From IMG/VR virus record IMGVR_UViG_3300030708_003106, positions 1 through 64,000 of that record: a DNA stretch of 64,000 nt, one strand, 5' to 3'. How positions within the stretch are numbered: the first letter of the stretch is position 1; each line of letters starts with the position of its first letter. Below, one piece after another: positions 41,268 through 56,643 of the stretch. Position numbers and translations under genes: made by a program. Below the pieces are notes generated by a model that was not told where the DNA came from, did no database searches, and worked only from the letters and a program-made list of their open reading frames with translations. The stretch comes from a virus (taxonomy: Duplodnaviria > Caudoviricetes).

Positions 41268-41298
41268 TTCTGAAGCCTCCAAAGTGTCCTAGTTATAT
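41268..41298 (+). repeat. 31-bp cassette element R1, with hairpin extending to 41310
   Basis: TTCTGAAGCCTCCAAAGTGTCCTAGTTATAT; AAAGTGTCC pairs with GGACACTTT. Confidence 0.9.
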
Positions 41299-41313
41299 CA
41301 GGGACACTTTTTG

Positions 41314-41412
41314 ATGTCAACTACTGAAAAATTAATTTTCATTGGATCATTTTTATGGATGATGCAATGGGGAACCCGTGTGACTTTGCTTGCGATCAAT
41401 GCTCTCTCTTGA
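41314..41412 (+). CDS. 32-aa hydrophobic peptide
   Basis: Manual translation MSTTEKLIFIGSFLWMMQWGTRVTLLAINALS, directly after R1. Confidence 0.55.
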   Translation: MSTTEKLIFIGSFLWMMQWGTRVTLLAINALS

Positions 41413-41866
41413 ATACTCAGGATACAACTATAGCAAAAATCGTTGCGAAAGTATAGTTCAGTGGTTTGTAGATAAGTATCTGCCACGACACAAACTAGAA
41501 ATTGTTGTACATCATCGCGGATTAGTTCGTGAAGGTGTATATGGTTGGTGTACTGTCCTTGATTGTGATTGGAGACCAAGAGCATTTGAAATCGAACTAC
41601 ACAATCAGATGAATATTGATGATTACACCAGCACCCTCTTACACGAACTCTGGCACGTTTATCAACATGTCAAGGGTAATCTGAAGGATAAGGGTGAAAA
41701 ACGCTTCTGGAAGGGCATAGACCACTCTGATACGGACTATTCTAATCAACCATGGGAACTTGAAGCAAGAGAAATGGAAAGGAAACTTTATTATTGCTAT
41801 TTGGGTCTTGGACCCGAATCTTTTGGTCATGGCACACCATTTCCCAATCGCTTGACAGCATCCTAA
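41399..41866 (+). CDS. HExxH zinc-metallopeptidase-like protein
   Basis: TLLHELWHVYQH...PWELEA. Confidence 0.75.
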   Translation: MLSLEYSGYNYSKNRCESIVQWFVDKYLPRHKLEIVVHHRGLVREGVYGWCTVLDCDWRPRAFEIELHNQMNIDDYTSTLLHELWHVYQHVKGNLKDKGEKRFWKGIDHSDTDYSNQPWELEAREMERKLYYCYLGLGPESFGHGTPFPNRLTAS

Positions 41867-41880
41867 AAACCCACTAGAAT
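41852..41880 (+). promoter_or_regulatory. sigma70-type promoter
   Basis: TTGACA-17-TAGAAT. Confidence 0.75.
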
Positions 41881-41904
41881 ACCTTTGTCGAGGTTAATCA
41901 AACT

Positions 41905-42108
41905 ATGACTTCTATTAAAACTGATTTTATTTGTGTAAAACCTAGGTCCTCTAAGGCAAAAAATAGGTTTGCAAATTTGATGAATAACCTCCACTCTTGT
42001 CGTATTGAGAAACGTAAAGATGGTAAATTATTCCTTGCTTCTATCAGTGGTAAATACTTTTTTTGGATGAATGAATCATCTGACGACCACTGGGAGGTTA
42101 TTAAATGA
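41905..42108 (+). CDS. Hypothetical protein
   Basis: ORF track; GAGG RBS. Confidence 0.7.
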   Translation: MTSIKTDFICVKPRSSKAKNRFANLMNNLHSCRIEKRKDGKLFLASISGKYFFWMNESSDDHWEVIK

Positions 42109-42302
42109 AAGATCAGAACAGCATCGAAGACACTGAAACTAAACAAGATAAATGGAATCGAGGTCTTGACATTTTTATTGAAAGTGTCTTAGAGCCAGAT
42201 TCTGATTTGAGAGCGTGTGCTCATAATCAAAGATGCTATCATGAATTGATGGATGTTCGTCAAGATGTTTTGGATTATCTCAAAACTAAAAGATGGAACT
42301 AA
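42105..42302 (+). CDS. Hypothetical protein
   Basis: ORF track; GGAGG RBS. Confidence 0.7.
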   Translation: MKDQNSIEDTETKQDKWNRGLDIFIESVLEPDSDLRACAHNQRCYHELMDVRQDVLDYLKTKRWN

Positions 42303-42430
42303 AGAATCCTACTATCCCTATATTAATGTTTTTGGGTGTAATTTTTTGCACCCTTTGTGTTATTGTAGCAGGATACTTCCATGGGAACATGCACCTTATC
42401 ACCACACTTAAAAATGCTGCCGCTTCTTAA
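42293..42430 (+). CDS. 45-aa membrane peptide
   Basis: Manual translation MELKNPTIPILMFLGVIFCTLCVIVAGYFHGNMH... Confidence 0.55.
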   Translation: MELKNPTIPILMFLGVIFCTLCVIVAGYFHGNMHLITTLKNAAAS

Positions 42431-42680
42431 CATTTTTCTTGCTGTAACTTTATGGGTTCAGGTTCCTCAATGGAATGATGACTGGAGTAACTGTGCCGTA
42501 GATGTTCCCGATACATCTTGCCATTGGTATATTGTTCAGGCAGATAATACTTTTGGTGAAGGATTTGATTGGGAGACTGCACCATGGTATAGTATTGAAG
42601 GTCTGCAAGATATTGCAGATTTGCATGATCAAGTCCTTTCTGAAGGCAATCAGTACACTGTAGAATCTCTTCAAAAATGA
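42414..42680 (+). CDS. Hypothetical protein
   Basis: Part of track ORF 42381..42680; internal ATG preferred because of the upstream gene. Confidence 0.6.
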   Translation: MLPLLNIFLAVTLWVQVPQWNDDWSNCAVDVPDTSCHWYIVQADNTFGEGFDWETAPWYSIEGLQDIADLHDQVLSEGNQYTVESLQK

Positions 42681-42835
42681 ACCTCACTCTCCAAGAAGTA
42701 GACCACCTTATCAAAGCACTAGAAACAATGTCATCTTATGATATTGCCCGTGCTAGAGAAGCAGTTGTGAATGGTGTGTCAGATCACCCTGAATTGATTC
42801 AAAAACTAAAAGATTATCGTCTTCGTCTCACTTGA
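42677..42835 (+). CDS. 52-aa hypothetical protein
   Basis: Manual translation MNLTLQEVDHLIKALE...; fills the gap with an ATGA overlap. Confidence 0.6.
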   Translation: MNLTLQEVDHLIKALETMSSYDIARAREAVVNGVSDHPELIQKLKDYRLRLT

Positions 42836-42836
42836 C

Positions 42837-43298
42837 ATGAAAGAATTTGATTATGAACTTGATTACAAATCACTTGACTTCACAGATGCAGAAACTCGCA
42901 AACTTTATCGTATTGGAAGGGGAGAACAAGGGGTTCTATTGGTACGCCCTTATACAAACGATATTTGTGCTCATTGGAGATTTGTAGATGAAGAAACGTC
43001 TATTAAATCTTCTCATAAAATATACGAAATGTTCTGTGAATATAAACAACGGAAAGATTTCATTGGAATGGACATGGCAAGAAAATTCCTTGAGATGGGA
43101 TTTACCCGTGCAAGACGGTATGCCAATCACTCTTCGGGACGCAAATATGCAAAAGACAGGAGTATATTACCCATTGAGTCCGATTGCCTCACGTCTGAGA
43201 AATCAAGATCAGCAAAAGTATTCAAGGAAGTAAGAGATAAAGCTGCATATGATTCGGAATATGTTACAATGAGAAAAGAATGGAGATCTAAGGAATAG
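42837..43298 (+). CDS. DUF4385-like conserved protein
   Basis: YRIGRGEQGVL...GMDMARKFLEMGFTRARRYANH. Confidence 0.8.
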   Translation: MKEFDYELDYKSLDFTDAETRKLYRIGRGEQGVLLVRPYTNDICAHWRFVDEETSIKSSHKIYEMFCEYKQRKDFIGMDMARKFLEMGFTRARRYANHSSGRKYAKDRSILPIESDCLTSEKSRSAKVFKEVRDKAAYDSEYVTMRKEWRSKE

Positions 43299-43300
43299 TC

Positions 43301-43516
43301 ATGACTCAACTAATTGATCCATCTGATCCACGTTATTTTACAAAGACTTCTGAGGGTCTATACGATAGGCATCATTATAAAGTTATATCTAAAGAAGGTG
43401 ATACTGTTGTAGTTGACAACTGGCAAGATGCCTTTCTCATATGGTGGAATAAAAAAGATTTTCTTTCTCATGTGGAGGTTTTAGATCCACCAAAAGGAGG
43501 AAAAGGATTTGCCTGA
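43301..43516 (+). CDS. Hypothetical protein
   Basis: ORF track; C-terminal KGF. Confidence 0.65.
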   Translation: MTQLIDPSDPRYFTKTSEGLYDRHHYKVISKEGDTVVVDNWQDAFLIWWNKKDFLSHVEVLDPPKGGKGFA

Positions 43517-43817
43517 CATTAAATATCATGATGCTTTTCCATGGAGGTTAGTGAATGGTGACACAATATGCCATTTTGAGTGCAGAGAACACTTGCAGAA
43601 ATACTTAGATAGATATAAACTGAAACCTAGAAACTGTAGCATTACACATAAAGATGGAAAACCCTTTGAATCCCGTGAAAAACACAAGAGAAACGTGGAG
43701 TCGTCAACATCAAAGAAAAATAACGGAAGTTCAAGTGCAGTTCGCAAACGAAAATCCAGCGTGGATTCCACTCGAAACACTTCTAGCAATTCAAAACGTA
43801 AGAAAAATGGAAAGTAG
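43509..43817 (+). CDS. Hypothetical protein with basic tail
   Basis: ORF track; TTG start after AGGAGG. Confidence 0.6.
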   Translation: MPDIKYHDAFPWRLVNGDTICHFECREHLQKYLDRYKLKPRNCSITHKDGKPFESREKHKRNVESSTSKKNNGSSSAVRKRKSSVDSTRNTSSNSKRKKNGK

Positions 43818-43819
43818 TC

Positions 43820-44002
43820 ATGTATGAAGAGCTAAATTGTTTTGAGGAAGCACTTAAACATTTTGGAACTAGAGTTGAAATCATCTGTGCTATGGAATAT
43901 TCCAAAAGATTGTCTTCCGAAGATGCATATCAAATGATCAAGGAAGAACTTAAGGAGGTTAAAAAATGCAGGAAAAAATTCAATCAGAAAGAGAATTGTT
44001 GA
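43820..44002 (+). CDS. Hypothetical protein
   Basis: ORF track. Confidence 0.65.
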   Translation: MYEELNCFEEALKHFGTRVEIICAMEYSKRLSSEDAYQMIKEELKEVKKCRKKFNQKENC

Positions 44003-44117
44003 CTTCTCTTGAATGGTATGATCTTTGGTTACATGAACCAGATGATCGACCTCTTGCAGAAATTTGGAGAGAAATGGATGAAATTGAATCTCTCACCCCA
44101 TTGCCACCTAAAGAACA

Positions 44118-44549
44118 ATGAAAACTAAAGCACTTTTACTTTCAACTCTATTATTCTTGCCTCTACCTGCATTTGCTGGCGGTCCAGTTTTTAGGAGAGG
44201 TAATCATAATCATGGACAAACGAATGTCTATGAAGAATGCTTTAGACATGTAGAGAAATATACTCCAGGACACTACAATAGTCGGGGTCAATATGTTCGT
44301 GGGCAAGTAAGAGTTACGAGAGAAAGTGTTCCTTGTGGATATGCTCCTAGGAGAAATTATCATGTCCCCAGTCACTATCAACGTAATGAACCTATAGACA
44401 ATAATGATTGCTCAGGTGGTACAGCTGTGGGTGCTTTGTTAGGTGGTGGACTTGCAGGATTTGGATCTAGAGGTAAAGATCGCTGGTGGGCGATTCCTGC
44501 TGGAGTTGTTGGTGGTGCCATGGTGGGATGTCAGATTGATGGTGGTTGA
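44118..44549 (+). CDS. Signal peptide plus glycine-zipper membrane protein
   Basis: Signal-like N-terminus; GTAVGALLGGGLAG...GVVGGAMVG. Confidence 0.75.
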   Translation: MKTKALLLSTLLFLPLPAFAGGPVFRRGNHNHGQTNVYEECFRHVEKYTPGHYNSRGQYVRGQVRVTRESVPCGYAPRRNYHVPSHYQRNEPIDNNDCSGGTAVGALLGGGLAGFGSRGKDRWWAIPAGVVGGAMVGCQIDGG

Positions 44550-44550
44550 G

Positions 44551-44581
44551 AACTGAAGCCTGCAAAGTGTCCCTGTAGTGT
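44551..44581 (+). repeat. 31-bp cassette element R2
   Basis: AACTGAAGCCTGCAAAGTGTCCCTGTAGTGT. Confidence 0.95.
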
Positions 44582-44598
44582 AAGCACCACTCAAACAC

Positions 44599-45033
44599 AT
44601 GGGAACCCGCTCTCGCATCGGTATTCAACTCAAAGACGGCAGTATTCTGAGTTCTTATCATCACTGGGATGGATATCCTGAGTGGTTGGGTCGCATCCTC
44701 ACCACACATTACAACTCCCGCGAACAAGCAGCGGAACTGATTGATGGTGGTGACATGTCATGTGCATGGACAAAAGATCGCTGGACTGGTAAACAACTTT
44801 CTGCTTATGTGACTGAGCAGAAAGAAGCAGAAGAGTATGGTCCTCAGTATTATTCTGGACGCGGTGAAGATTGCCCTCCTCGTCTTGATGACAACATTGA
44901 GAAATTCCTTACAGATGGTGAAGAATATGGTTACATCTTTGAAAATGGTGAATGGAAGTGCTATGATACTAAAGACTGGTCCGATACATATAAGGAGCAG
45001 ATTTCCATTCCTGAAGGAGCATTGGCAGTATGA
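44599..45033 (+). CDS. Conserved phage hypothetical protein
   Basis: MGTRSRIG...YHHWDGYP motif. Confidence 0.75.
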   Translation: MGTRSRIGIQLKDGSILSSYHHWDGYPEWLGRILTTHYNSREQAAELIDGGDMSCAWTKDRWTGKQLSAYVTEQKEAEEYGPQYYSGRGEDCPPRLDDNIEKFLTDGEEYGYIFENGEWKCYDTKDWSDTYKEQISIPEGALAV

Positions 45034-45221
45034 TTGATAGAGGTTTTCTGACAGAAATGTCTCATGATGATAAAGAACGTCTGTCAGAAGACTGTGAGGA
45101 TTATCTTTTACATAGGAACATCCCTCTTTATTCTGATTCGTATGATAATATCATCATACATGCAATTAAAGAGGGATATCAATTACAACGTTTTGATCGC
45201 TTCGTAAAAAAACCACAATGA
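45030..45221 (+). CDS. Hypothetical protein
   Basis: ORF track; ATGA overlap. Confidence 0.6.
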   Translation: MIDRGFLTEMSHDDKERLSEDCEDYLLHRNIPLYSDSYDNIIIHAIKEGYQLQRFDRFVKKPQ

Positions 45222-45337
45222 CTGAAAAAGAACTCAAGCAAATGGAAATCGTTGCAGAAGAATTTTGGGCAGAGGTTGAATCCGAAGCGGAACGACTTGA
45301 AGTCACGGTTGATTACTATCTTGCTGAATTTTACTGA
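45218..45337 (+). CDS. 39-aa acidic peptide
   Basis: Manual translation MTEKELKQMEIVAEEFWAEVESEAERLEVTVDYYLAEFY. Confidence 0.6.
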   Translation: MTEKELKQMEIVAEEFWAEVESEAERLEVTVDYYLAEFY

Positions 45338-45537
45338 TGGAAGAAGAAATCAAACCGAAAAGAATCAAAGATGAGAAATTTCTGCTACTAGCAGCAATCA
45401 ATCAAGTAGAAAACATTATCAACCTGACAGAGGAAAATGAATACAAACAATTCATTTATATGCACCTCAATTCAGTTTATTATGAACTAAAGCGCCAGTT
45501 GACTAATCTCACAGACCAAAGTAAAATTAAGGAGTAA
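45337..45537 (+). CDS. Hypothetical protein
   Basis: ORF track. Confidence 0.6.
   Translation: MEEEIKPKRIKDEKFLLLAAINQVENIINLTEENEYKQFIYMHLNSVYYELKRQLTNLTDQSKIKE
45499..45527 (+). promoter_or_regulatory. sigma70-type promoter
   Basis: TTGACT-17-TAAAAT. Confidence 0.65.
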
Positions 45538-45548
45538 ACTAACCGAGG

Positions 45549-45791
45549 ATGATGACTCAAAAGTATTTCTACATTGTTGACCACTTTGTTCCTTTTCCTT
45601 CTAGTGAATATGGTGGTGTTTGGAATGTGATTGCTGAAAGTGACGAAGATTGTTTTAATCTTATCACCGATAGTGATGATGGATTTAATCAACAGTATTA
45701 TGGAAACCTTCGTGAAAACATTCTAAAGTCTCGCACTTATGCCTTGGCAGAAGATGTAGAATCTACTATTGTTGAGGAATTTACTACATGA
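45549..45791 (+). CDS. Hypothetical protein
   Basis: ORF track; PFPSSEYGG motif. Confidence 0.7.
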   Translation: MMTQKYFYIVDHFVPFPSSEYGGVWNVIAESDEDCFNLITDSDDGFNQQYYGNLRENILKSRTYALAEDVESTIVEEFTT

Positions 45792-46571: not shown

Positions 46572-46602
46572 AACTGAAGCCCCTAAACTGTTTTATTATT
46601 GT
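46572..46602 (+). repeat. 31-bp cassette element R3
   Basis: AACTGAAGCCCCTAAACTGTTTTATTATTGT. Confidence 0.9.
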
Positions 46603-46615: not shown

Positions 46616-46750
46616 ATGGACTGGTACGACGACATTCAAGTTGAAGAACTTCAAAACTTTGATCACATTGAAGAAGATCTCGAAGATTTGATTGAAGACA
46701 ATCAAAATTTCAACATGAAAGAATACCTCAACTCCAACATTGATTACTGA
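46616..46750 (+). CDS. 44-aa very acidic peptide
   Basis: Manual translation MDWYDDIQVEELQNFDHIEEDLEDLIEDNQNFNMKEYLNSNIDY (15 D/E). Confidence 0.65.
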   Translation: MDWYDDIQVEELQNFDHIEEDLEDLIEDNQNFNMKEYLNSNIDY

Positions 46751-46751
46751 A

Positions 46752-46973
46752 ATGAACTTCCCTACTCAAACTGTCAACGTTTTGCCTCACATGAATGAAC
46801 TCCGAGAGACTTGGAGGCGTCAAGATTTTCGATTTACTAAAGAGCAACAAGAAGAATATGATATGCTAAAGCAAGCACGAGCAGAACGAGTTAGGTGGTT
46901 TTATGAAACTGGACGAGTTCAAGTTGGTCCCAAAGTGACAAAAGAAAAGGAAATTGAATCTGAAGACAGTTGA
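46752..46973 (+). CDS. Hypothetical protein
   Basis: Track ORF 46740..46973; internal ATG preferred. Confidence 0.65.
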   Translation: MNFPTQTVNVLPHMNELRETWRRQDFRFTKEQQEEYDMLKQARAERVRWFYETGRVQVGPKVTKEKEIESEDS

Positions 46974-47028
46974 GATACTGTCCATAACCACTTGACTTAA
47001 CGTTCATTATCTCCTATTATACTAAATA
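46965..47028 (+). promoter_or_regulatory. Stacked regulatory site: palindrome, sigma70 promoter and late-like promoter
   Basis: GACAGT-6-ACTGTC (46965-82); TTGACT-17-TATTAT (46992-47020); ACTAAATA (47021-28). Confidence 0.65.
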
Positions 47029-47052
47029 ATAGGAGATTTTTTCCTGTCTAAA

Positions 47053-47559
47053 ATGAAAACCTTTGCTGAATTTGTTGCAGAAGCATATGATAAGGATGTC
47101 ATGGGATCTTCCCAAATCCGTAAGCAAGGAGAGGGTGGAAGAGTTGGTGCTAATAGAAAGAAAACAGAACCAGAAAAGCGTAGAATGAAAGCAGCGGGTG
47201 GTGGAAAAATGGTCCCCGCAAAAGATTACAAACCCCGCAAAGATATTGGTTCTCAAAGGCAAAGATCTACAAGAGAGCAACAACCAACACAGGAAAGAGG
47301 ATCTGCTGCATTATCAGCAAAAGAAGCACAACGCAAGGCATATAGAGAAAGAAAGGCAAGAGAATCGGGTGCAAAGACTAAATCTGCATCAGAACTTCTG
47401 TCTAAGAAATCTGCTAAGAAAGTAAATCCTAACTATAAACCACAAAAAGCATCTGGATATACTAGAACCGAGAGACAGAAACTTCAGAGAACTGGCGATA
47501 GAATTATTCGCGACATTCGTAAGGGTAAAGACAAACCAGCATCTGCATACGAAAACTAA
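47053..47559 (+). CDS. Basic protein with a T4 capsid-targeting-like N-terminus (putative internal protein)
   Basis: MKTFAEFVAE compared with the T4 internal-protein CTS MKTYQEFIAE; K/R rich. Confidence 0.65.
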   Translation: MKTFAEFVAEAYDKDVMGSSQIRKQGEGGRVGANRKKTEPEKRRMKAAGGGKMVPAKDYKPRKDIGSQRQRSTREQQPTQERGSAALSAKEAQRKAYRERKARESGAKTKSASELLSKKSAKKVNPNYKPQKASGYTRTERQKLQRTGDRIIRDIRKGKDKPASAYEN

Positions 47560-47589
47560 ACTGAAGCCCCTAAAGCGTCTCAGTAGTGT
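47559..47589 (+). repeat. 31-bp cassette element R4, with hairpin extending to about 47599
   Basis: AACTGAAGCCCCTAAAGCGTCTCAGTAGTGT; GTCTCAG pairs with CTGAGAC. Confidence 0.95.
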
Positions 47590-47613: not shown

Positions 47614-47655
47614 AAACAACCTCTAGGTATATTTGTACTGCTGAGGTTGTTTTTT
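47614..47655 (+). terminator. Intrinsic terminator-like hairpin
   Basis: AAACAACCTC/GAGGTTGTTT stem followed by a T run. Confidence 0.65.
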
Positions 47656-47656
47656 A

Positions 47657-47685
47657 TTGACAGGCAATTCTGACTCTGCTAAACT
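47657..47685 (+). promoter_or_regulatory. sigma70-type promoter of the R-M pair
   Basis: TTGACA-17-TAAACT, then AAGGAG RBS. Confidence 0.75.
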
Positions 47686-47706
47686 ACTATTTTAAGGAGA
47701 CCACCG

Positions 47707-48240
47707 ATGGGAGTTTCACAACTTTCCGAAATCGTTGCTCTCGGTTTTGAAGAACTCATTGCTGAGGGTGACACAAGGGAAATTGGCAAGTTTCTTGCAT
47801 TTCCAACCGAACGTATCATCGCCCCGCAATGGTTGCGCGAAGAATGTGGAATCGAAAATGATAAATCTCCCGATGATCTTGATGGTCAGCAGGAAAAGTA
47901 CGATAGACTTTCTTCAAAAGGTCTGCGTATTCAAGTTAAGTATCGTGGAGGAAATACTCTCCACATGGAACAAACTCGCCGCACTACTGGCAAAAATGCA
48001 AACAATGGTGCTAAGAATGGGCAGGTTCGCTATGCAGTGAACTCGTTTGATGTTATACTGTTTATTATCCCCAAAGGTCACGAAGATATTTCAAAGTGGG
48101 AATATCTTGCTATTCCTAGTTGTGAACTTGAAGATAAAAATATGCCTGGATATTGTGTAGGTTCTGTTCCTGCTGCTGTCCGTAAAAAGTACACTGGTCG
48201 CGCAAAGGAGGTTCTGGTTGCTCTCAACAATGCTGAATGA
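47707..48240 (+). CDS. Putative PD-(D/E)xK restriction endonuclease
   Basis: YD...RIQVK...Y...FDVILF pattern; overlaps the methyltransferase gene. Confidence 0.55.
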   Translation: MGVSQLSEIVALGFEELIAEGDTREIGKFLAFPTERIIAPQWLREECGIENDKSPDDLDGQQEKYDRLSSKGLRIQVKYRGGNTLHMEQTRRTTGKNANNGAKNGQVRYAVNSFDVILFIIPKGHEDISKWEYLAIPSCELEDKNMPGYCVGSVPAAVRKKYTGRAKEVLVALNNAE

Positions 48241-49177
48241 ATATACAATCGGTGACAGTAGAGAACTACTGAAAGAAGTTGATGCAAACTCGGTGGATCT
48301 AATTTATATTGATCCACCATATTGCACTGGCAGAGACTTCTATCACTTTGATGATCGATTCAAATCGAGTGCAGATTATCGTGAATTGTTGATGCGTCCT
48401 TTATTGGAAGAATGTCATCGTGTTCTGACTGATTGTGGCAACATTGTTGTGCATGTAGAACCTAAGATCTCTCATCATATTCGCATTGTCCTTGATGACG
48501 TATTTGGTGAGAATAGATTTAAGAATGAGATTGCTTGGGTTTCTGGCGGCAACCACAAATCAAAAAAGCAACTGCAACGCAATCATGATACGATCATTGT
48601 TTATCAGAAAGGAAAAGAATCCATCTATAATGCAGAGCACAAAGAATATGATGAGGATACTGTAAGGAAGGCAAAGATCTGTCCAATTCGCAAAAAGAAA
48701 TACAATACATCTGCACTTGTTAATCGTCAACCAAATGTTGTATCTCGCCCTAATTTGAGATATGAATGGAATGGTAATCATCTCCAGTGGCATGTATCAA
48801 AGGAGAGGATGCAGATGCTTCATGATGATAATCGATTAGAATATTCTCCTAACACAGGTATTCCTAGAGTCAAGAAGTATTTGGATGAAATGGATGGAAT
48901 CCCTGTCAAAGATGTATGGTCTGATGTAAAACAGATTCAGGGAAATGAGAAGTTAGATTATGCAACTCAAAAACCTGTTGCACTCTTAAATCGCATACTT
49001 CGCATGTTCAGTAACAAAAACTCTATTGTTCTTGATCCTTGTGCTGGATCTGGTACAGTAGGCAGAAGCGCCAGACAGACAGATAGAAATTACATTTTAT
49101 TTGATCTTAACACTGAAGGCAAAAAACTATTTGAAGAATCAATTAAAAATCCATTGCTCGACGCAATGGTCAGTTAA
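48218..49177 (+). CDS. DNA N6-adenine/N4-cytosine methyltransferase, beta class
   Basis: IDPPY precedes TQKP and VLDPCAGSGT; AAGGAGG lies 6 nt before the TTG start. Confidence 0.9.
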   Translation: MLSTMLNEYTIGDSRELLKEVDANSVDLIYIDPPYCTGRDFYHFDDRFKSSADYRELLMRPLLEECHRVLTDCGNIVVHVEPKISHHIRIVLDDVFGENRFKNEIAWVSGGNHKSKKQLQRNHDTIIVYQKGKESIYNAEHKEYDEDTVRKAKICPIRKKKYNTSALVNRQPNVVSRPNLRYEWNGNHLQWHVSKERMQMLHDDNRLEYSPNTGIPRVKKYLDEMDGIPVKDVWSDVKQIQGNEKLDYATQKPVALLNRILRMFSNKNSIVLDPCAGSGTVGRSARQTDRNYILFDLNTEGKKLFEESIKNPLLDAMVS

Positions 49178-49180
49178 ATT

Positions 49181-49211
49181 AACTGAAGCCCCTAAAATGT
49201 CCTAGTAATAC
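49181..49211 (+). repeat. 31-bp cassette element R5
   Basis: AACTGAAGCCCCTAAAATGTCCTAGTAATAC. Confidence 0.95.
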
Positions 49212-49224
49212 TGATACGCCCTAG

Positions 49225-50415
49225 ATGATTACACTTCGCCCACATCAGGAACGCATCACAAATCGTATGCGTGACTACAACAAAGGTCAGATTATTGTTC
49301 CTACTGGTGGTGGTAAAACTCTCACCATGATTGTTGATACTCGGGATCGTCATGATTCTATCAACAATGGAACCACTACCGTTGTTGTTGCTCCGCGTAT
49401 TCTGCTGGCAGAACAACTGTGCAGCGAATTTATGGAGGTTATTGATACTGCTCACACACATGTAATGCATGTTCATAGTGGAGAAACTTCATATTTCTCT
49501 ACAACAAAGGCAGAAAAGATCAATCTATTTGTAAATACCGCTAGAACTGCTGGTGAGAATGTAATTATCTTCACCACTTATCATTCTTTGCATCGTTTGC
49601 AGGAGGCAGATATTGAAGTCAATACGATCTACTTTGATGAAGCGCATAATTCTGTGCAGAGAAACTTTTTCCCTGCTACGGAATACTTTGCTGCTGATTC
49701 TGATCGTTGCTATTTCTTCACTGCTACTCCTAAACATTCTCTTACTGTTTCTAAACCTGGGATGAATGATTTTGCTGTTTATGGTCAGGTTCTGGCAAAT
49801 GTTCCTGCTCCTGAACTAGTTGAAGGTGGTTACATTCTTCCTCCCAAAGTTGTAGTCAAGTCGCTTCCTTTGATCAAAGGTCGCAAAGTCATGTATGCTG
49901 AAGATGCTGATAATTTGATCGAAACTATTGATGAGAACAACATCGACAAGACTTTGATTTGTGCTCGCACTACGAAGCAGATTGTGGGTCTTCTTTCTCA
50001 GTCTGATTTCTGTGCTGAACTTGCTCAGCGTGGATATTCTTGGATGACGATCACATCGAAGACTGGTGCAATCATTGATGGTAAGAAAGTCAATCGTGAG
50101 CAATTCTTTGAGACTCTGAACACTTGGGGCAAAGATCCTGAGAAGAAGTTTGTTGTCATTCACCACAGCATTTTGTCTGAAGGCATCAACGTGAGTGGAC
50201 TTGAAGCAGTTATTTTCATGCGTAACATGGATTATATCGGCATCAGTCAATCTATCGGTCGTGTGATTCGTTTGGGTGGCAAGTCTAAGACCTTTGGTCT
50301 AGTTTGCATCCCAACTTATGATTCTGTTGGTATTTCTACTGCTCGCAAAGTTCAGGCAGTTGTTGATGTTGTATTCAACAAAGGTGAACCCGCTATTTCT
50401 GAGATTCGTCGATGA
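49225..50415 (+). CDS. SF2 DEAH helicase/translocase (type III Res-like)
   Basis: LRPHQ, PTGGGKT, DEAH, TATP, LSEGIN, QSIGRVIR. Confidence 0.9.
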   Translation: MITLRPHQERITNRMRDYNKGQIIVPTGGGKTLTMIVDTRDRHDSINNGTTTVVVAPRILLAEQLCSEFMEVIDTAHTHVMHVHSGETSYFSTTKAEKINLFVNTARTAGENVIIFTTYHSLHRLQEADIEVNTIYFDEAHNSVQRNFFPATEYFAADSDRCYFFTATPKHSLTVSKPGMNDFAVYGQVLANVPAPELVEGGYILPPKVVVKSLPLIKGRKVMYAEDADNLIETIDENNIDKTLICARTTKQIVGLLSQSDFCAELAQRGYSWMTITSKTGAIIDGKKVNREQFFETLNTWGKDPEKKFVVIHHSILSEGINVSGLEAVIFMRNMDYIGISQSIGRVIRLGGKSKTFGLVCIPTYDSVGISTARKVQAVVDVVFNKGEPAISEIRR

Positions 50416-50654: not shown

Positions 50655-50685
50655 AACTGAAGCCCCTAAACTGTCCTAGTAGTAT
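50655..50685 (+). repeat. 31-bp cassette element R6 (supplies the ATG at 50684)
   Basis: AACTGAAGCCCCTAAACTGTCCTAGTAGTAT. Confidence 0.95.
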
Positions 50686-51577
50686 GAAGAACACTCATTT
50701 GCAACATCCTGAAGATTCTATTCTGACTGGAGACCTTTCAGTTCTTGATTGGTTCGGTGAGTCGGATAGTATTATCAGCACCAAAATGGATGGCGCTCCT
50801 GCTATTGTTTGGGGCACAGATCCTGCGACTGGTACATTCTTTGTTGGCACTAAATCTGTCTTCAACAAAGTAAAAATCAAAATCAATCATTCACATGAAG
50901 AAATTGACAAGAATCACGAAGGCAAAGTTGCTCGTATTCTTCATGCTTGCTTTGATTGTTTGCCTCGCACTCAATCCATTATTCAGGGTGATTTTATTGG
51001 GTATGGTGGTAGTGATACTTTTCGCCCCAATACGATTACTTATGTCTTCCCTCAAATAGTATCGGAAGATATTATTATTGCACCTCATACTTTGTATTTT
51101 GGTGTTGATCTGCGAACTGTAAAAGCAGCACCTTTGACTAACAAACTGATCAGCACTGATTCTTGTTTGTTTGTCCAACCTGAAGTTTCTTTGCATCCTC
51201 ATCGTGAAGATTTGGTAGATGTTTGTGCATTTGCCAAGCAAATGTCTACTCTATGTGAGTTTGTCACTCCAAACAAAGCAACAAAAATCAAAAAACATAT
51301 CAATGACTGCATCCGTGGGGAAAACTACATTGATGAAGATGAAATTGCAGAAAAATTTGATTGTGACATCAACTTGATCCGATTGTGGAAGTTGGTTGCA
51401 TCTATCAAGGAAGATTTGTTCTGCTTCATTGATGAGTGTGATGACATTGGTTGTTTGATTGGTGAAGAAGTTACATTGCATGAAGGTTATGTCATCACCA
51501 ACAAATATGGCATGTTCAAGGTTGTTGATCGTGAGGAGTTTTCCCGTGCAAACTTTATCATGGAAAAGACTTGGTAA
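50684..51577 (+). CDS. Conserved phage protein with ligase-type nucleotidyltransferase motifs
   Basis: TKMDG (KxDG), QGD, HEGYVI, FKVVDR. Confidence 0.6.
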   Translation: MKNTHLQHPEDSILTGDLSVLDWFGESDSIISTKMDGAPAIVWGTDPATGTFFVGTKSVFNKVKIKINHSHEEIDKNHEGKVARILHACFDCLPRTQSIIQGDFIGYGGSDTFRPNTITYVFPQIVSEDIIIAPHTLYFGVDLRTVKAAPLTNKLISTDSCLFVQPEVSLHPHREDLVDVCAFAKQMSTLCEFVTPNKATKIKKHINDCIRGENYIDEDEIAEKFDCDINLIRLWKLVASIKEDLFCFIDECDDIGCLIGEEVTLHEGYVITNKYGMFKVVDREEFSRANFIMEKTW

Positions 51578-51581: not shown

Positions 51582-51612
51582 AACTGAAGCCCCTAAACTG
51601 TCCTAGTTACAT
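51582..51612 (+). repeat. 31-bp cassette element R7 (ATG at 51611)
   Basis: AACTGAAGCCCCTAAACTGTCCTAGTTACAT. Confidence 0.95.
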
Positions 51613-52004: not shown

Positions 52005-52035
52005 AACTGAAGCCTCCAAAGTGTCCCTATAGTAT
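52005..52035 (+). repeat. 31-bp cassette element R8 (ATG at 52034)
   Basis: AACTGAAGCCTCCAAAGTGTCCCTATAGTAT. Confidence 0.95.
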
Positions 52036-52213: not shown

Positions 52214-52423
52214 TTGATGCAATTCCAAATTACTGAAATCGAATTAGATTTTGAAGATTCTCAAGGTGTTCTATCTCATAATGAACAAACTGAAATTGTT
52301 GATGATTTAGTTGGTCACATCTGGGAAGCAGATGATGAAGATGATCTCATTGAAGAAATCACATGTGCATCAGGTTGGTGTGTCAAATCCATCGATTTTC
52401 GTTATGCTCTAAACGCATCTTAA
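52214..52423 (+). CDS. Acidic hypothetical protein
   Basis: ORF track; WEADDEDDLIEEIT. Confidence 0.7.
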   Translation: MMQFQITEIELDFEDSQGVLSHNEQTEIVDDLVGHIWEADDEDDLIEEITCASGWCVKSIDFRYALNAS

Positions 52424-52424
52424 A

Positions 52425-52613
52425 ATGAAAACAACAACTGCAACTTATTCAATCACAGTTACAACTGATGAGGGTACACTATCATTTTTGAGGACAATGC
52501 CCACACGTCCAAAAACATCTAAGGGCATTAAAGCACATAATACTAGATTGGAAAACTATGCCATGAAGCAGTATCCAAACTGGAAAGAAATCGACGTTAA
52601 ACTATTGCCATGA
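52425..52613 (+). CDS. Hypothetical protein
   Basis: ORF track. Confidence 0.65.
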   Translation: MKTTTATYSITVTTDEGTLSFLRTMPTRPKTSKGIKAHNTRLENYAMKQYPNWKEIDVKLLP

Positions 52614-52780
52614 GTAACATCGAAGATGTAACAAACTCTCCCAAAGATTGGGAAGACTTTTGGTACAATTCCGAGTCAGATGGACAGGAATTTGAGAAAC
52701 TTCCCCCATACCTTGAAGCAGTCTTAGGACTCTCAAAATACCCTGCTGATTGTAAACGCGAATCCCCACTTTCAGAATGA
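52610..52780 (+). CDS. 56-aa hypothetical protein
   Basis: Manual translation MSNIEDVTNSPKDWEDFW...; ATGA overlaps on both sides. Confidence 0.6.
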   Translation: MSNIEDVTNSPKDWEDFWYNSESDGQEFEKLPPYLEAVLGLSKYPADCKRESPLSE

Positions 52781-52944
52781 TCACTAACAAAGCACAAATG
52801 CTCAACGTCATGTCAAAATGTGACGGTGCAGATACACTCACCCGAGAGGAAAAGTTTCAAGTCTTTTGTAATGTTTGCGACAACATGTTGAAAGAAGGTA
52901 GAATTAGCAAAGCAAATCACAAGCGTTGGACTAACATTTGGTAA
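52777..52944 (+). CDS. 55-aa hypothetical protein
   Basis: Manual translation MITNKAQMLNVMSKCDG...RWTNIW. Confidence 0.6.
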   Translation: MITNKAQMLNVMSKCDGADTLTREEKFQVFCNVCDNMLKEGRISKANHKRWTNIW

Positions 52945-52946
52945 TT

Positions 52947-53171
52947 ATGAAAGTTGATACAATAGGCAGGATTATTGGTTCAGTTCTTGTAATCGTTGCC
53001 TATTTTGTTATTTTACACATTGATCTCACATTTGGGGTGACATTAAACTTCATTGGTGATGCAATTTCCATTCCATTCTTTATACGAACAAAGTCCTGGG
53101 ATGTTGTCATTATGTTAGTTTTCTTATTGTGTATTTCTTCCAGTAAATTATTTGGGTTTGGTTTATCATGA
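52947..53171 (+). CDS. Small multi-pass membrane protein
   Basis: Three hydrophobic segments; ATG inside track ORF 52938..53171. Confidence 0.65.
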   Translation: MKVDTIGRIIGSVLVIVAYFVILHIDLTFGVTLNFIGDAISIPFFIRTKSWDVVIMLVFLLCISSSKLFGFGLS

Positions 53172-53308
53172 AATGCGAAGTAAAGTTGTACGTTGCAGGA
53201 AAAGTTTTCGCTGAGGAAGTATATGCGAAAGATTATCAAGAGGCAAGGGAAGTTGCATTAGCACGCAATCCTAATGCAAAAGTAATAGGAGTGACAGCAA
53301 AGTTCTAA
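53168..53308 (+). CDS. 46-aa hypothetical protein
   Basis: Manual translation MKCEVKLYVAGKVFAEEVYAKDYQEAREVALARNPNAKVIGVTAKF. Confidence 0.65.
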   Translation: MKCEVKLYVAGKVFAEEVYAKDYQEAREVALARNPNAKVIGVTAKF

Positions 53309-53316
53309 GGATTAGA

Positions 53317-53347
53317 AACTGAAGCCTCCAAAGTGTCCTAGTAGTAT
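53317..53347 (+). repeat. 31-bp cassette element R9 (ATG at 53346)
   Basis: AACTGAAGCCTCCAAAGTGTCCTAGTAGTAT. Confidence 0.95.
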
Positions 53348-53561
53348 GAAGACCACTCAAATGCAAATCAGCACCGCTTTCACTGATGCTTTGGAGTCCA
53401 TGTCTGGGTTCTTTTATGAAATGAATCCTGATCTGGATATGTGCTACGATTATGTTTGCGAGATTGCAGAAATTGATTCTTTCGTTGACAATAAAGAAGC
53501 ATGGGATATGTTCTATGAAGCATGGGAAAAGGTTGCTGAGGAGAACTTTATCGATGTCTGA
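53346..53561 (+). CDS. Acidic hypothetical protein
   Basis: ORF track. Confidence 0.65.
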   Translation: MKTTQMQISTAFTDALESMSGFFYEMNPDLDMCYDYVCEIAEIDSFVDNKEAWDMFYEAWEKVAEENFIDV

Positions 53562-53775
53562 TTCTATCAAAACTTATCCACTTTTTTCTGAACTTATGAG
53601 CATTACTAATCCTTACGTTGAAAATCTTGTCGAGATGGGATATGATCGAAAAGACGTAGAAACGGCGTCTACGATGTTTCAAAAGAAAACGTTTCCATAT
53701 ACAATTCACGGTCGCACTTATCAGACCGAAGAAGAATATAATGAAGCGATTCACGAGTTTATGAATGGCATGTAA
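53554..53775 (+). CDS. Hypothetical protein
   Basis: Track ORF 53452..53775; internal ATG preferred. Confidence 0.6.
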   Translation: MSDSIKTYPLFSELMSITNPYVENLVEMGYDRKDVETASTMFQKKTFPYTIHGRTYQTEEEYNEAIHEFMNGM

Positions 53776-53789
53776 TTCAGAGGTTTAAT

Positions 53790-53820
53790 AACTGAAGCCC
53801 CTAAAGTGTCCCAGTAGTAT
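53790..53820 (+). repeat. 31-bp cassette element R10 (ATG at 53819)
   Basis: AACTGAAGCCCCTAAAGTGTCCCAGTAGTAT. Confidence 0.95.
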
Positions 53821-53992
53821 GAACAACACTCAAGAAACCAAATTCCTTCTCTATGGTCAATTCCATCGCGCAAATGGTTGGATTATGAACGACTGTTTGG
53901 GTTACATTAAGGCAACAGAACAAGAGGCAATCGATACATGTAAGCGCCTCAATCCTAACTTTGTCATTCAATCTATCACCATCGAAAAATGA
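53819..53992 (+). CDS. 57-aa hypothetical protein
   Basis: Manual translation MNNTQETKFLLYGQFHRANGW...; ATGA overlap with the next gene. Confidence 0.65.
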   Translation: MNNTQETKFLLYGQFHRANGWIMNDCLGYIKATEQEAIDTCKRLNPNFVIQSITIEK

Positions 53993-54273
53993 ACTACACT
54001 CTCTGGCATCTCCAACAACGTGTCAACAAACTGATCGAACAACAAGGTGAAGATGCACATTGTGCGGCATGGATTTACACCAAGGAAGATTGTTTTTTGA
54101 CTGATGATAATGGTGAGCAGGAATATCCATGTGATGAACATCCTGAACTTGCTGAACGTATCTTCAATGATGTTGGAAACATTGATTACATCTACACTGT
54201 CATTCAAGAGTGTGTGGATGAAGTAACTGAAGAACAATATATGGCATATCAACAAGAACTTTCAGAGGTTTAA
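53989..54273 (+). CDS. Acidic hypothetical protein
   Basis: ORF track. Confidence 0.7.
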   Translation: MNYTLWHLQQRVNKLIEQQGEDAHCAAWIYTKEDCFLTDDNGEQEYPCDEHPELAERIFNDVGNIDYIYTVIQECVDEVTEEQYMAYQQELSEV

Positions 54274-54274
54274 T

Positions 54275-54305
54275 AACTGAAGCCTCCAAAGTGTTTCTAT
54301 AGTAT
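54275..54305 (+). repeat. 31-bp cassette element R11
   Basis: AACTGAAGCCTCCAAAGTGTTTCTATAGTAT. Confidence 0.95.
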
Positions 54306-54334
54306 AGGCACCGATTCATTTTTCTTTTCTTCAC

Positions 54335-54607
54335 ATGCAAGTCACTAATTCTGCTGTCATTGTTGATTACTTCCCCGAGGCATTTATTGCTGAGTCTTGT
54401 GAGAAGAAAGGTGTGAAAGTTGTTGTCAAACGTTTCATCCGCCGCGTTAAGTTTCGTGCTACTGGTCAAAAATCTTATAGCACAGTTCTTGGTATTGAAG
54501 CAAAATATGATTGGCAAGCGCGTATTGCTAAAGGTGCAGAAGTGACTGACTTTAACACTGAAAAAATGCCTCGCTCTGAGTTCATGCCTCTTGCATGTGT
54601 GGGGTGA
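54335..54607 (+). CDS. Hypothetical protein
   Basis: ORF track. Confidence 0.7.
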   Translation: MQVTNSAVIVDYFPEAFIAESCEKKGVKVVVKRFIRRVKFRATGQKSYSTVLGIEAKYDWQARIAKGAEVTDFNTEKMPRSEFMPLACVG

Positions 54608-54610
54608 TTT

Positions 54611-54796
54611 ATGTCACTGATCAAACTTTATCTTCACAACAAAATGATGGACCGACTTGAAATGTTGACTCAACGTGAACAACTTATGGAGGACATTGAT
54701 TGTATCATTGAATCAAACTTTGGAGAGGTTGAATATAAAGATGATGTAATTCGTCAACTGTGTGATGCAGTCTGCAAAAACTTTCCAACCGACTAA
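54611..54796 (+). CDS. Hypothetical protein
   Basis: ORF track. Confidence 0.6.
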   Translation: MSLIKLYLHNKMMDRLEMLTQREQLMEDIDCIIESNFGEVEYKDDVIRQLCDAVCKNFPTD

Positions 54797-55032
54797 TGTC
54801 TTTCGTTTCATTTTCCACCGATCCAAACATCATGAACCAAGAGCAACTTAACAGACTTAAAGAGAACTATGCCAACCTCATTGTTGATGGGATGGATATG
54901 GATACTCTCGTTCAATTCGCACTTGATAGTCTCATGAATGATATGGAAAAATGGGATGAAGTAGATGTTAAAGAAGAAGTTCTTTATTTGTATGATGATG
55001 AAACTTGGAAAGATCTTCAAGAGTCAGTGTAA
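54796..55032 (+). CDS. Acidic hypothetical protein
   Basis: ORF track. Confidence 0.65.
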   Translation: MSFVSFSTDPNIMNQEQLNRLKENYANLIVDGMDMDTLVQFALDSLMNDMEKWDEVDVKEEVLYLYDDETWKDLQESV

Positions 55033-55106
55033 CTTACCGAGGTTTTCCGAGTAGCGCAGCGTTCCGGATTTTTTGATCATAAGTATCAATCAACCTCAGT
55101 AATACT

Positions 55107-55137
55107 AACTGAAGCCTGTAAAGTGTCCCTATAGTGT
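55107..55137 (+). repeat. 31-bp cassette element R12
   Basis: AACTGAAGCCTGTAAAGTGTCCCTATAGTGT; GTGTCC pairs with downstream GGACAC. Confidence 0.95.
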
Positions 55138-55166
55138 AAGGACACACAATCCCAACACTTTTCCAA

Positions 55167-55514
55167 ATGCGTAAGATCGAATCCCAAATGTGCCAAGCAG
55201 TTCAGTCTAACAAGAACTGGAGTTCTGGTAACACTACGGTTACGATTGATGAGGAAACTAATACTTCCTCTGTTTATCTTCACGGCAATCTGATTGCTAC
55301 TGTGACAGATAATGACATGACCATTTATGATGGTGGTTGGCAAAGTAACACCACTAAGTCGCGATTGAACGCTCTGTGTGATACTTTCTGTGTTGATGGT
55401 GAAGGTGTTTTCCAGGAGAATTTCGCCTGGTATGTGAGGAAGTTTGTAGGTGCAATTAACGGACAATCTAAGTTCGTCATCGAAACTTTTTCCAACGGTT
55501 ACATCTTTGCCTGA
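55167..55514 (+). CDS. Conserved phage hypothetical protein
   Basis: VYLHGNLIA...GWQSNTTKSRLNAL motif. Confidence 0.75.
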   Translation: MRKIESQMCQAVQSNKNWSSGNTTVTIDEETNTSSVYLHGNLIATVTDNDMTIYDGGWQSNTTKSRLNALCDTFCVDGEGVFQENFAWYVRKFVGAINGQSKFVIETFSNGYIFA

Positions 55515-55636
55515 GTCTTAACTTACATCTAGGCAGTACAGAATTGGGAGACTGATTCACAACGTAAGACCTAGTTTAACCAAGTGCTGAGTAACACTAT
55601 AAACTGCTCACATTTCACTCTAATTTACATCAACTC

Positions 55637-55783
55637 ATGTCTAAAGAAGTTCTCATCGGTATGCTGAAAATTGCTCAGAACGGTGATCAAATGCTTCAAA
55701 TTCTTGACAGCATTACTGACACTGAAAAGGAGAGTATTTCCTCTGATGCAGTAGACTTCAGCGGTCAACCTGTCAACTTCTGA
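55637..55783 (+). CDS. 48-aa hypothetical protein
   Basis: Manual translation MSKEVLIGMLKIAQNGDQMLQILDSI...; followed by a terminator. Confidence 0.6.
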   Translation: MSKEVLIGMLKIAQNGDQMLQILDSITDTEKESISSDAVDFSGQPVNF

Positions 55784-55787
55784 TAAT

Positions 55788-55818
55788 AAGAAAGGGGCGC
55801 TAAAAATGCCCCTTTTTT
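55788..55818. terminator. Intrinsic terminator, possibly bidirectional
   Basis: AAGAAAGGGGCG-CTAAAAA-TGCCCCTTTTTT. Confidence 0.8.
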
Positions 55819-55998
55819 GCTATTATACATAAAGATTACCCTTTTTTTATATTAAAAATGTATTAAAAAATGTATTTACGTTGTTTGTATCGTGTTTAAC
55901 ATTGTTGGAAATGGAGTTACTTAGCAGTGTCTTCGTAGTTACTCTGGGGCGTATTTGTAGTGATTTTAATGCTCTCAGACGTTGTGATCTAAGCGAGC

Positions 55999-56027
55999 AG
56001 TCTATCACGAACGCGCAGAAATGTCAA
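55999..56027 (-). promoter_or_regulatory. Minus-strand sigma70-type promoter
   Basis: TTGACA-17-TAGACT on the minus strand. Confidence 0.55.
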
Positions 56028-56102
56028 CCGGGCGGAGATAAGTTTTACCAGGGATTGACAACACAAAACTATCAGACTTGCTAATAAATACTGAGAGGAT
56101 TA

Positions 56103-56131
56103 TTGACAGTTCCTCTCTGTTATTCTATACT
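56103..56131 (+). promoter_or_regulatory. sigma70-type promoter
   Basis: TTGACA-17-TATACT. Confidence 0.8.
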
Positions 56132-56160
56132 AGTAAAGTATCACTCAGGGAGTCTCACAA

Positions 56161-56334
56161 ATGCCGACAGTCTATCACCAGTCTCAAAAGAGTAAGTATC
56201 GCATCACTCTGGAAATTGAAGCATTAGCAGACTTCGACCCTCATCAGATTAACTGGGAGAAGTTGTTCAAATTGGAAGGCAATGAGTCTTGTGATGCGTA
56301 TATCGAAGACCTGTCAAATCCTGGTCGTTGGTGA
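56161..56334 (+). CDS. 57-aa hypothetical protein
   Basis: Manual translation MPTVYHQSQKSKYRITLE...; GGAG RBS and upstream promoter. Confidence 0.7.
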   Translation: MPTVYHQSQKSKYRITLEIEALADFDPHQINWEKLFKLEGNESCDAYIEDLSNPGRW

Positions 56335-56359
56335 TAGATTGTCAGTGGTGGGTGATAGT

Positions 56360-56390
56360 AACTGAAGCCTGTAAAGTGTCTCAGTAGTAT
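56360..56390 (+). repeat. 31-bp cassette element R13 (ATG at 56389)
   Basis: AACTGAAGCCTGTAAAGTGTCTCAGTAGTAT. Confidence 0.95.
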
Positions 56391-56643
56391 GAACATCACT
56401 TCGACAGACATGACCGCTCAAACTTACAACGGTTGGGCAAATTATGAGACCTGGAATGTTGCTCTGTGGTTGGGAAATGATGAGACTATGTATAACTTTG
56501 CCCGTATGTTTGCAGAGCATGGTTATAAGTCTCTGTCGCACCAGTTAGTAGAAACTTTCGGTGCAGTTACTCCTGATGGTGTGTATTGGAAGCACGCTGA
56601 TCTGAATATCAATGAACTGAATGAAATGTTGGAAGAACTCTGA
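56389..56643 (+). CDS. Conserved phage hypothetical protein
   Basis: YNGWANYETWNVALW...TPDGV motif. Confidence 0.75.
   Translation: MNITSTDMTAQTYNGWANYETWNVALWLGNDETMYNFARMFAEHGYKSLSHQLVETFGAVTPDGVYWKHADLNINELNEMLEEL

Follow-up and report, generated by a model that had tools for sequence, protein, structure and literature searches.

T4-like cyanophages have no motA and asiA genes (PMC5780444) and hence no MotA/AsiA system like that of T4, which leaves open how their first genes are turned on. The question meets a concrete locus in positions 1 to 64,000 of the IMG/VR virus record IMGVR_UViG_3300030708_003106 (this whole stretch of 64,000 nt is called the window): what are the thirteen copies of a 31-bp element, E1 to E13 (Table 1), that divide a region of small genes into cassettes? 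The genome is that of a T4-like cyanomyovirus (Kyanoviridae), held on a 91,617-bp contig, and its closest cultured relatives, S-SM2, SynMITS9220M01 and Bellamy, share about 80% nucleotide identity with it over common genes. The array occupies a block of small + strand genes, with tail-fibre-type genes on one flank and the baseplate genes gp25/gp6 on the other. A preliminary description of the window had likened this layout to an integron. We find that the element joins a ten-base, genome-private box to a widely shared core, and that it is probably a lineage-specific early-gene promoter and start module, whose private box is read by a putative specificity factor and whose copies also serve as recombination seams.

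The element joins a private box to a widespread core

The 13 start positions first reported proved correct: all copies lie on the + strand, in register and without indels, and the positions given as invariant, C3–C10 (CTGAAGCC), A14–A16, G19 and T20, are so in all 13, as are T26 and T29. The pattern CTGAAGCC-N3-AAA-N2-GT has 13 exact matches in the window against 0.06 ± 0.24 in dinucleotide shuffles. On the whole contig CTGAAGCC occurs 13 times, always within an element copy, where about 0.5 occurrences per strand are expected. Together with these exact scans, position weight matrix scans of both strands, which gave no additional copy, extend to the whole 91,617-bp contig the earlier statement that the element is found nowhere else in the window. 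A one-mismatch match at 43620 (43616-43644) was rejected as an extra copy; the stretch is coding and is also conserved in S-SM2 and Bellamy, phages with different elements of their own. As originally noted, the start of nine copies falls within 10 bp of the + strand stop codon before it, and the fourth copy overlaps this codon. Neighbouring copies are alike at positions 11–13 (CCT in E3–E7, TCC in E8–E9, TGT in E12–E13), which hints at local spread or conversion between them.

What the preliminary description missed is the main point: only the first ten bases are private, and the remainder is a widespread cyanomyovirus signal. The element thus has two parts, positions 1–10 (here AACTGAAGCC), which are constant in one genome but differ from genome to genome, and positions 13–31 (YAAAGYGTCCCTATAGTRT), which are widespread. 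The shared half recurs, invariably within this small-gene region, in S-SM2 and SynMITS9220M01 and in more than 160 stretches of uncultured cyanomyoviruses. A scan with positions 11–31 only gave 10–11 copies in S-SM2 (42.7–57.1 kb) and 12 in SynMITS9220M01 (36.3–50.0 kb), in both cases on one strand of the orthologous region and nowhere else in the genome; their first ten bases read AAGGGGGGTCG and TTACTCACC, respectively. The element is absent from Bellamy, Syn9, P-TIM40, S-T4 and S-SKS1, and the scan for the shared half gave only background-level matches in Syn9, P-TIM40, S-PM2, S-T4 and S-SKS1. An exact scan of IMG/VR found the shared half in at least 118 stretches, and a scan for the window's own box type found 54.

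For the conservation analysis we used 492 non-redundant copies, drawn from the window, the two isolates and 118 IMG/VR stretches among the matches listed; the counts over 492 copies below refer to this set. A14–16, G19, T20, T26, A27, T29 and T31 are 96–100% conserved, the shared part continues weakly to about position 44, and positions 1–10 have only G5 (87%) and C9 (99%) in common across box types. These types number about a dozen, some of them joined by single-base steps (e.g. ACTGAAGCC, ACTGAGCC, CTGGGCCC and CTGGGGCC). The box is 94% identical within a contig vs 48% between contigs; the variable positions of the shared half show 76% vs 64%. A single box type is found in 64 of 72 contigs, and there are eight mixed arrays. 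At least 12 box types occur before the gene for the DUF6267 protein alone, in each case the type of the genome concerned. Restriction-site look-alikes in the boxes (CTGAAG, GGGCCC, GGATCC, CGATCG) were set aside as expected by chance for short GC-rich palindromes.

The shared half is tied to gene starts

An ATG stands at positions 30–32 in 227 of the 492 copies (46%). In 90% of them this frame runs on for 40 or more codons without a stop, compared with 0.4% and 5% for the other two frames, and GTG is avoided at the same place (12 copies observed, about 82 expected). Of 122 next ATGs downstream, 114 are in frame with the built-in one, most of them at a distance of 15 nt. Copies without a built-in ATG have their start codon 16–19 nt after position 30, with no 3-nt periodicity. 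In DUF6267 the built-in ATG is the ancestral start, as the N-terminus MKNTHLQHPED is common to the element-free Syn9, S-SKS1 and Bellamy. In Bellamy, the orthologues of GC68 and of the gene at 52034 start at what is the second Met in the window, where the element adds five codons. The leader is G-poor and carries no Shine-Dalgarno-like sequence. The reading frames indicate at least that ribosomes see positions 30–32, be it on the element's own transcripts or on read-through ones. The built-in ATG also matters for gene-start annotation, with 5-codon N-terminal extensions in many genes.

Relatives carry promoter-type signals at the equivalent positions

Within the element lies a -10-like hexamer, TAGTRT, in which T26, A27 and T31 fit TAnnnT. 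Taking this hexamer as the -10 puts the private box at about -37 to -28. In Syn9 and P-TIM40, DUF6267 is preceded by GTGGCACA, about 25 nt and then a TATAAT-like box, an arrangement that also stands before several Bellamy orthologues; among these are the orthologues of the genes behind E5, E6, E7 and E11 (helicase, DUF6267, GC68 and GC81), all of which follow it. S-T4 and S-SKS1 have the same kind of arrangement in the orthologous region. Because the orthologues carry that signal upstream, the element is its positional equivalent.

Sites of the GTGGCACA type were located at L002 (Bellamy) 2915, 6305, 9772, 16020, 17031 and 17625, at L128:760 (Syn9) and at L129:19295 (P-TIM40), and also in L132 and L133. 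The ~25 nt between GTGGCACA and TGTATTAT or another TATAAT-like box often form a GC-rich hairpin, and in Bellamy and S-SKS1 the -10-like box is followed by TAAAGAGTCAAAGG.

The mechanism we propose is as follows. The module would serve one clade (S-SM2, SynMITS9220M01 and many uncultured relatives), in the block of small and presumably early genes that separates those for the tail fibres from those for the baseplate. Its shared part would carry the -10-like TAGTRT and fix the start codon, either built in or 16–19 nt further on, and its private part would sit where a -35 or activator box would lie. Host RNA polymerase would start at the modules with the help of a putative factor reading the private box, an arrangement comparable to the MotA box in middle promoters of T4 or to the phage-specific half in promoters of the T7 group. 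The comparisons below show, in addition, that the modules double as seams for ordinary homologous recombination because all of them share 20–45 bp: cassettes move or are inserted at junctions inside the element, and the private box is replaceable on its own, as a 13–15 nt patch. For the start of transcription, a site 5–8 nt after TAGTRT is slightly favoured over one at or before the built-in ATG.

Good sigma-70 sites are few inside the array, and their count is not above that of shuffles. Perfect (12/12) TTGACA-17-TATAAT sites follow E13 at 56662-56690 and 57077-57105 (+), and further perfect or near-perfect (11/12) ones are at 41852-41880 and 56103-56131 (+); such sites lie mostly just past the last copy. 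Host-type promoters may take over there from the element-driven block.

The search for a reader and the points against a promoter

A genome-private upstream third on a core shared by hundreds of ocean virus contigs points to a specificity factor. We searched S-SM2 and SynMITS9220M01 for a T7-type polymerase (PF00940) and obtained no match at E <= 10, with P-SSP7 as the positive control at E = 2.7e-69; neither genome has a sigma region 4, and gp55 late sigma is the only sigma found in them. Clustering 2,217 open reading frames (ORFs) from 115 element-bearing stretches gave no family tied to one box type, and protein identities within and between types were nearly equal. One cassette, C3, stands out when the gene content of S-SM2 and SynMITS9220M01 is set against that of Bellamy and Syn9, and it is the only one specific to phages with the element. 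It covers window positions 46616-47559 with three ORFs (44, 73 and 168 aa) and occurs in both isolates as well as in about 40 contigs that bear the element; two of its genes match nothing in Bellamy or Syn9. Its 168-aa protein is strongly basic (rich in K, R and G), has no counterpart in Pfam or PHROG and, by its composition, is probably disordered. Cassette C3 is a weak lead to the reader.

Several observations weigh against the promoter module set out above. The first concerns the candidate reader: no extra sigma factor and no T7-type polymerase was found on the contig, S-SM2 or SynMITS9220M01, no candidate protein emerged, and the similarity ranking of the C3 168-aa protein does not track box type. 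The putative -10 hexamer takes in the conserved start codon of DUF6267, so that transcription from a canonical start, 7 nt past TAGTRT, would begin after this codon and the gene could not be expressed from the copy in front of it. YAAAGT, another hexamer at positions 13–18 and attractive for its start at R25 (purine in 97%), was rejected as the -10, being broken by C18 in most S-SM2 copies. The element has no -35 box: a sigma-70 scan called none of the 13 copies, and the position of the -35 holds the private box. Box swaps and the eight mixed arrays indicate that a foreign box can persist, which weakens a strict need for one box per genome. The promoter call rests on position and on a -10-like hexamer, and the promoter remains a putative one.

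Having weighed these points, we still regard the promoter module as the probable identity of the element. More tentatively, and with less than even confidence, we propose that the private box is the site of a fast-evolving specificity factor, phage-encoded or virion-delivered, that steers host RNA polymerase to phage early genes. If so, the clade would split into about a dozen transcriptional 'compatibility types', and box swapping together with exchange at the shared half would move genes between types while each genome keeps one. S-SM2 and SynMITS9220M01, both cultured, bear different boxes before the same genes, which makes the question testable.

Readings without a promoter or without a reader

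The start-codon data could also reflect a signal at the RNA level, with the element as a translation-start or processing element in long read-through early transcripts; ribosomes would land on the shared part, with its AUG, and a phage RNA-binding protein or nuclease would take hold of the private box. The built-in ATG is indeed treated as if ribosomes see it, being 90% in frame with GTG avoided, and DUF6267 begins at it, but no Shine-Dalgarno-like pairing holds across box types. Read-through is to be expected, as no terminator-like site adjoins any of the 13 copies and there are none between cassettes, yet good sigma-70 sites from which such long transcripts could start are few in the array. 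The elements are placed exactly where adjacent ORFs are not overlap-coupled. A hairpin buries positions 17–23 in a subset of copies; however, the copies show neither a common fold nor covariation (mean z = -0.67 over 13 copies, with folds that vary between copies) and no Rfam family matches the element. Since relatives have clear -10-box promoters at equivalent positions, and since T26, A27 and T31, all invariant, suit a -10 hexamer in DNA, we consider an RNA-level signal unlikely.

These folding results bear on two other matters. A conserved hairpin in the style of PeSL (promoter-early stem-loop) cassettes or attC was rejected: the GTGTCC/GGACAC stem occurs only in E1, E4 and E12, and stems of this type across the 492 copies reach only about twice the shuffled rate. 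With no shared fold and 0 of 13 sigma-70 calls, the early judgement that the element resembles neither attC nor a promoter with a TTGACA -35 stands. At E1 (window 41281-41315), AAAGTGTCC in the shared half pairs with the downstream GGACACTTT in a perfect 9–10 bp stem followed by a TTTT run; this hairpin, which overlaps the first element, looks like a terminator of the preceding, probably late, gene.

Alternatively, the box may have no reader and be uniform only through frequent short-patch gene conversion among copies and co-infecting phages, possibly set off by a nuclease cleaving foreign boxes, as a selfish or neutral 'barcode' on a promoter. Such conversion would suit the precise 13–15 nt swaps in near-identical DNA, the existence of mixed arrays, the likeness of adjacent window copies at positions 11–13 (CCT in E3–E7, TGT in E12–E13) and the fact that box type is largely uncoupled from gene trees. 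It fits poorly with a box whose positions 3–10 are invariant in 13 of 13 copies (1–2 differ in E1) while positions 11–13 and 21–25 vary, with G5 and C9 conserved across all types, with boxes that are GC-rich islands in a 37% GC genome, and with a single-base-step series of types, as expected for a co-evolving binding site. We judge a readerless box improbable, more so than an RNA-level signal.

Recombination at the elements is homology-driven

Gene order is mostly collinear between the window, S-SM2, SynMITS9220M01 and Bellamy, and window-specific changes often end in elements. The clearest junctions concern E10 to E12: element 11 of SynMITS9220M01 matches the window to +28 of E10 and resumes at +8 of E12, and the insert between them (Table 1) holds cassette C10, whose two ORFs have no match in S-SM2, SynMITS9220M01 or Bellamy, and the translocated GC81 cassette C11. 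Homology of the latter starts at +8/+12 of E11, a copy whose 3' half and leader are those of the GC81 promoter in S-SM2 and SynMITS9220M01, and the left 24 nt of E11 (14-nt upstream flank plus private box) are identical to E10. E11 is therefore a hybrid, with its left 24 nt copying E10 and its 3' half from the GC81 promoter. In E4, the 3' half and about 70 nt of leader are homologous to the S-SM2 helicase promoter and leader. Homology to L156 stops at +32 of E8, and homology to L154 (97.5%) starts at +3 of E1.

Exchange also affects the box alone. Near-identical genes follow different box types in different contigs, and in two comparisons (L042:1638 vs L059:211; L060:6665 vs L066:5588) only the box is swapped, as a 13–15 nt patch within 88–98% identical DNA; such a swap turned L059 into a mixed array. 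On DUF6267 and helicase trees the box supertype changes 18–22 times, compared with a minimum of 4 and with 28–30 for shuffled labels, counts that are rough as they come from FastTree trees.

Other changes ignore the elements. About ten single-ORF indels relative to S-SM2 and SynMITS9220M01 are not at elements, and L154 (97.5%) and L078 (94%) keep the cassette order unchanged, with their three indels away from elements. Junctions at gene starts would also be expected from selection for expressible inserts. The proposal in the preliminary description that each element both drives expression and acts as a crossover point is thus borne out in part: elements head gene groups, and synteny breaks or junctions fall inside them at E1, E8, E10/E12 and E11, but many indels lie elsewhere and close relatives are collinear.

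No recombinase had been seen in the window, and a search of the whole contig and of the two complete isolate genomes (S-SM2, SynMITS9220M01) gave none either: integrase and resolvase profiles (PF00589, PF00239) had no match at E <= 0.1, with controls positive in 13–14 of 14 genomes. Despite the repeat-bounded layout and some cassette insertions or moves with junctions at elements, the integron-like reading, which makes the 31-bp elements the sites of a cassette-moving site-specific recombinase, is largely refuted and has in our view almost no probability left: these genomes lack a tyrosine or serine recombinase, the element has no attC-like imperfect palindrome or other conserved fold and lies at the 5' end of its units, often with their start codon, junctions are scattered in or near it (+8 to +32, +81) as homologous exchange gives, and close relatives are collinear. 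Recombination is real but homology-driven, and the evidence speaks against a dedicated system. The array provides sequence-level examples of how small-gene regions are reshuffled in abundant marine viruses, by exchange within a 20–45 bp shared module and sometimes by conversion of the box only, and the shared half is a handy metagenome marker for the early region of the clade.

Gene content of the array

The cassette genes as annotated fit the restriction-modification (R-M) pair, helicase and ligase-like protein first recognised in the array. Their coordinates are collected with those of the elements in Table 1; DUF4385 and a cAMP-phosphodiesterase-like protein are also named in the region. 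The weak 3' half of E3 recurs in its orthologues in S-SM2 and SynMITS9220M01. The insert between the E4 leader and E5 carries its own sigma-70-like site at 47657-47685.

Table 1. Element copies, inserts and selected genes of the array, in window coordinates
Feature	Position	Strand	Remarks
E1	41268..41298	+	TTCTGAAGCC variant; left edge of small-gene region
E2	44551..44581	+	no built-in ATG; start codon at 44599
E3	46572..46602	+	weakest 3' half (CTGTTTTATTATTGT); heads cassette C3
E4	47559..47589	+	overlaps stop of ORF 47053-47559
Insert between E4 leader and E5	47640..49180	+	window-specific; 177-aa ORF and methylase
177-aa partner ORF of methylase	47707-48240	+	unassigned
N6/N4 DNA methylase	48230-49177	+	paired with 177-aa ORF
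E5	49181..49211	+	ahead of SF2 helicase
SF2 helicase	49225-50415	+	behind E5
E6	50655..50685	+	positions 30-32 = DUF6267 start codon
DUF6267 protein (T4-GC71)	50684-51577	+	KxDG-like motif; behind E6
E7	51582..51612	+	built-in ATG; 5 codons before ancestral GC68 start
E8	52005..52035	+	built-in ATG; 5 codons before ancestral start
E9	53317..53347	+	built-in ATG
E10	53790..53820	+	built-in ATG; left border of insert 53818..55115
Insert relative to SynMITS9220M01	53818..55115	+	1.3 kb, between E10 and E12; cassette C10 and translocated GC81 cassette C11
E11	54275..54305	+	hybrid copy
E12	55107..55137	+	GTGTCC/GGACAC hairpin; heads gp90-like gene at 55167
E13	56360..56390	+	last copy; built-in ATG (ORF 56389-56643)

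Directly upstream of the helicase (window 47640-49224) is a hot spot at which all three genomes differ: the window has the methylase pair, S-SM2 a different 'R/M system' pair (L001:11431-13205) and SynMITS9220M01 an unrelated 341-aa ORF (L003:8970-9995). Behind E9, a 71-aa ORF from the built-in ATG (53346-53561) overlaps a 107-aa ORF in another frame (53452-53775), and the latter has homologues in S-SM2 and SynMITS9220M01. A 352-aa ORF (L001:119154-120212, S-SM2 record coordinates) is 91% identical between S-SM2 and SynMITS9220M01, is absent from this contig and has no match in Bellamy or Syn9.

Comparison with known systems

Literature searches for the motif strings of the element gave no match. 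We compared it with systems of similar layout or position. An early-gene regulatory element in the T4-like cyanophages Syn9 and P-TIM40 was reportedly described by Doron et al. in 2016 (ISME J 10:1437). It concerns the same virus family and genes of the same kind; the window's element stands before orthologues (DUF6267, GC68, GC81 and the helicase) of genes that follow a GTGGCACA-type signal in Syn9, P-TIM40 and Bellamy, but differs from that signal in sequence, in its private box and in its start-codon spacing (14–17 nt vs ~22 nt in Bellamy). T4 middle promoters combine a MotA box (TGCTT) at -30 with a -10 box and are read by MotA/AsiA-remodelled sigma-70. If TAGTRT is the -10, the element would likewise have a non-sigma box, centred near -32, in place of the -35; however, its sequence is unrelated to the MotA box and varies between genomes, and the 12 bp between box and -10 are also invariant.

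Promoters of the T7 group (T7, T3, SP6, K11) have one conserved part, for initiation, and one phage-specific part, for recognition by the phage's own polymerase, and the element resembles them in having a shared and a phage-private part; GTGTCCCTATAG presumably resembles the SP6 promoter core. In contrast to that group, no T7-type polymerase gene is present in S-SM2, SynMITS9220M01 or this contig, and the private part is located beyond the upstream reach known for T7-type promoters. With integron attC sites the element has in common that repeats bound gene units, but there is no integrase and no attC fold, and the site would be on the wrong (5') side of the cassette. The 29–58 bp intergenic repeats of halovirus HF2, whose host is archaeal, have been shown to be promoters and contain a TATA box (PMC8707807). 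They too are repeated intergenic elements of a myovirus, without a reported private/shared two-part structure.

The closest described system is that of the PeSL cassettes of non-cyanobacterial T4-like phages, known from the T4-type phages RB49/phi1, T4/PST and KVP40/nt-1 (Arbiol 2010, PMC2839356; Comeau 2014, PMC4122927). Both recur as short regulatory modules between genes, in the hyperplastic small-gene parts of T4-like myovirus genomes; PeSL modules end at the start codon, which the element has built in or at a fixed distance, and each has its own sequence version, per phage pair for PeSL and per genome for the element. Both adjoin indels and exchanges, and homologous recombination between copies has been proposed. 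Unlike PeSL, the element has no stem-loop or terminator, no sigma-70 -35 and, in its G-poor leader, no Shine-Dalgarno-like sequence; PeSL has -35 and -10 boxes 17 nt apart, whereas the -35 position of the element is taken by a 10-nt genome-private box that can be swapped alone, and the start codon often lies inside the element. In summary, the element adds a private box and a built-in start codon to the PeSL-like promoter-cassette theme.

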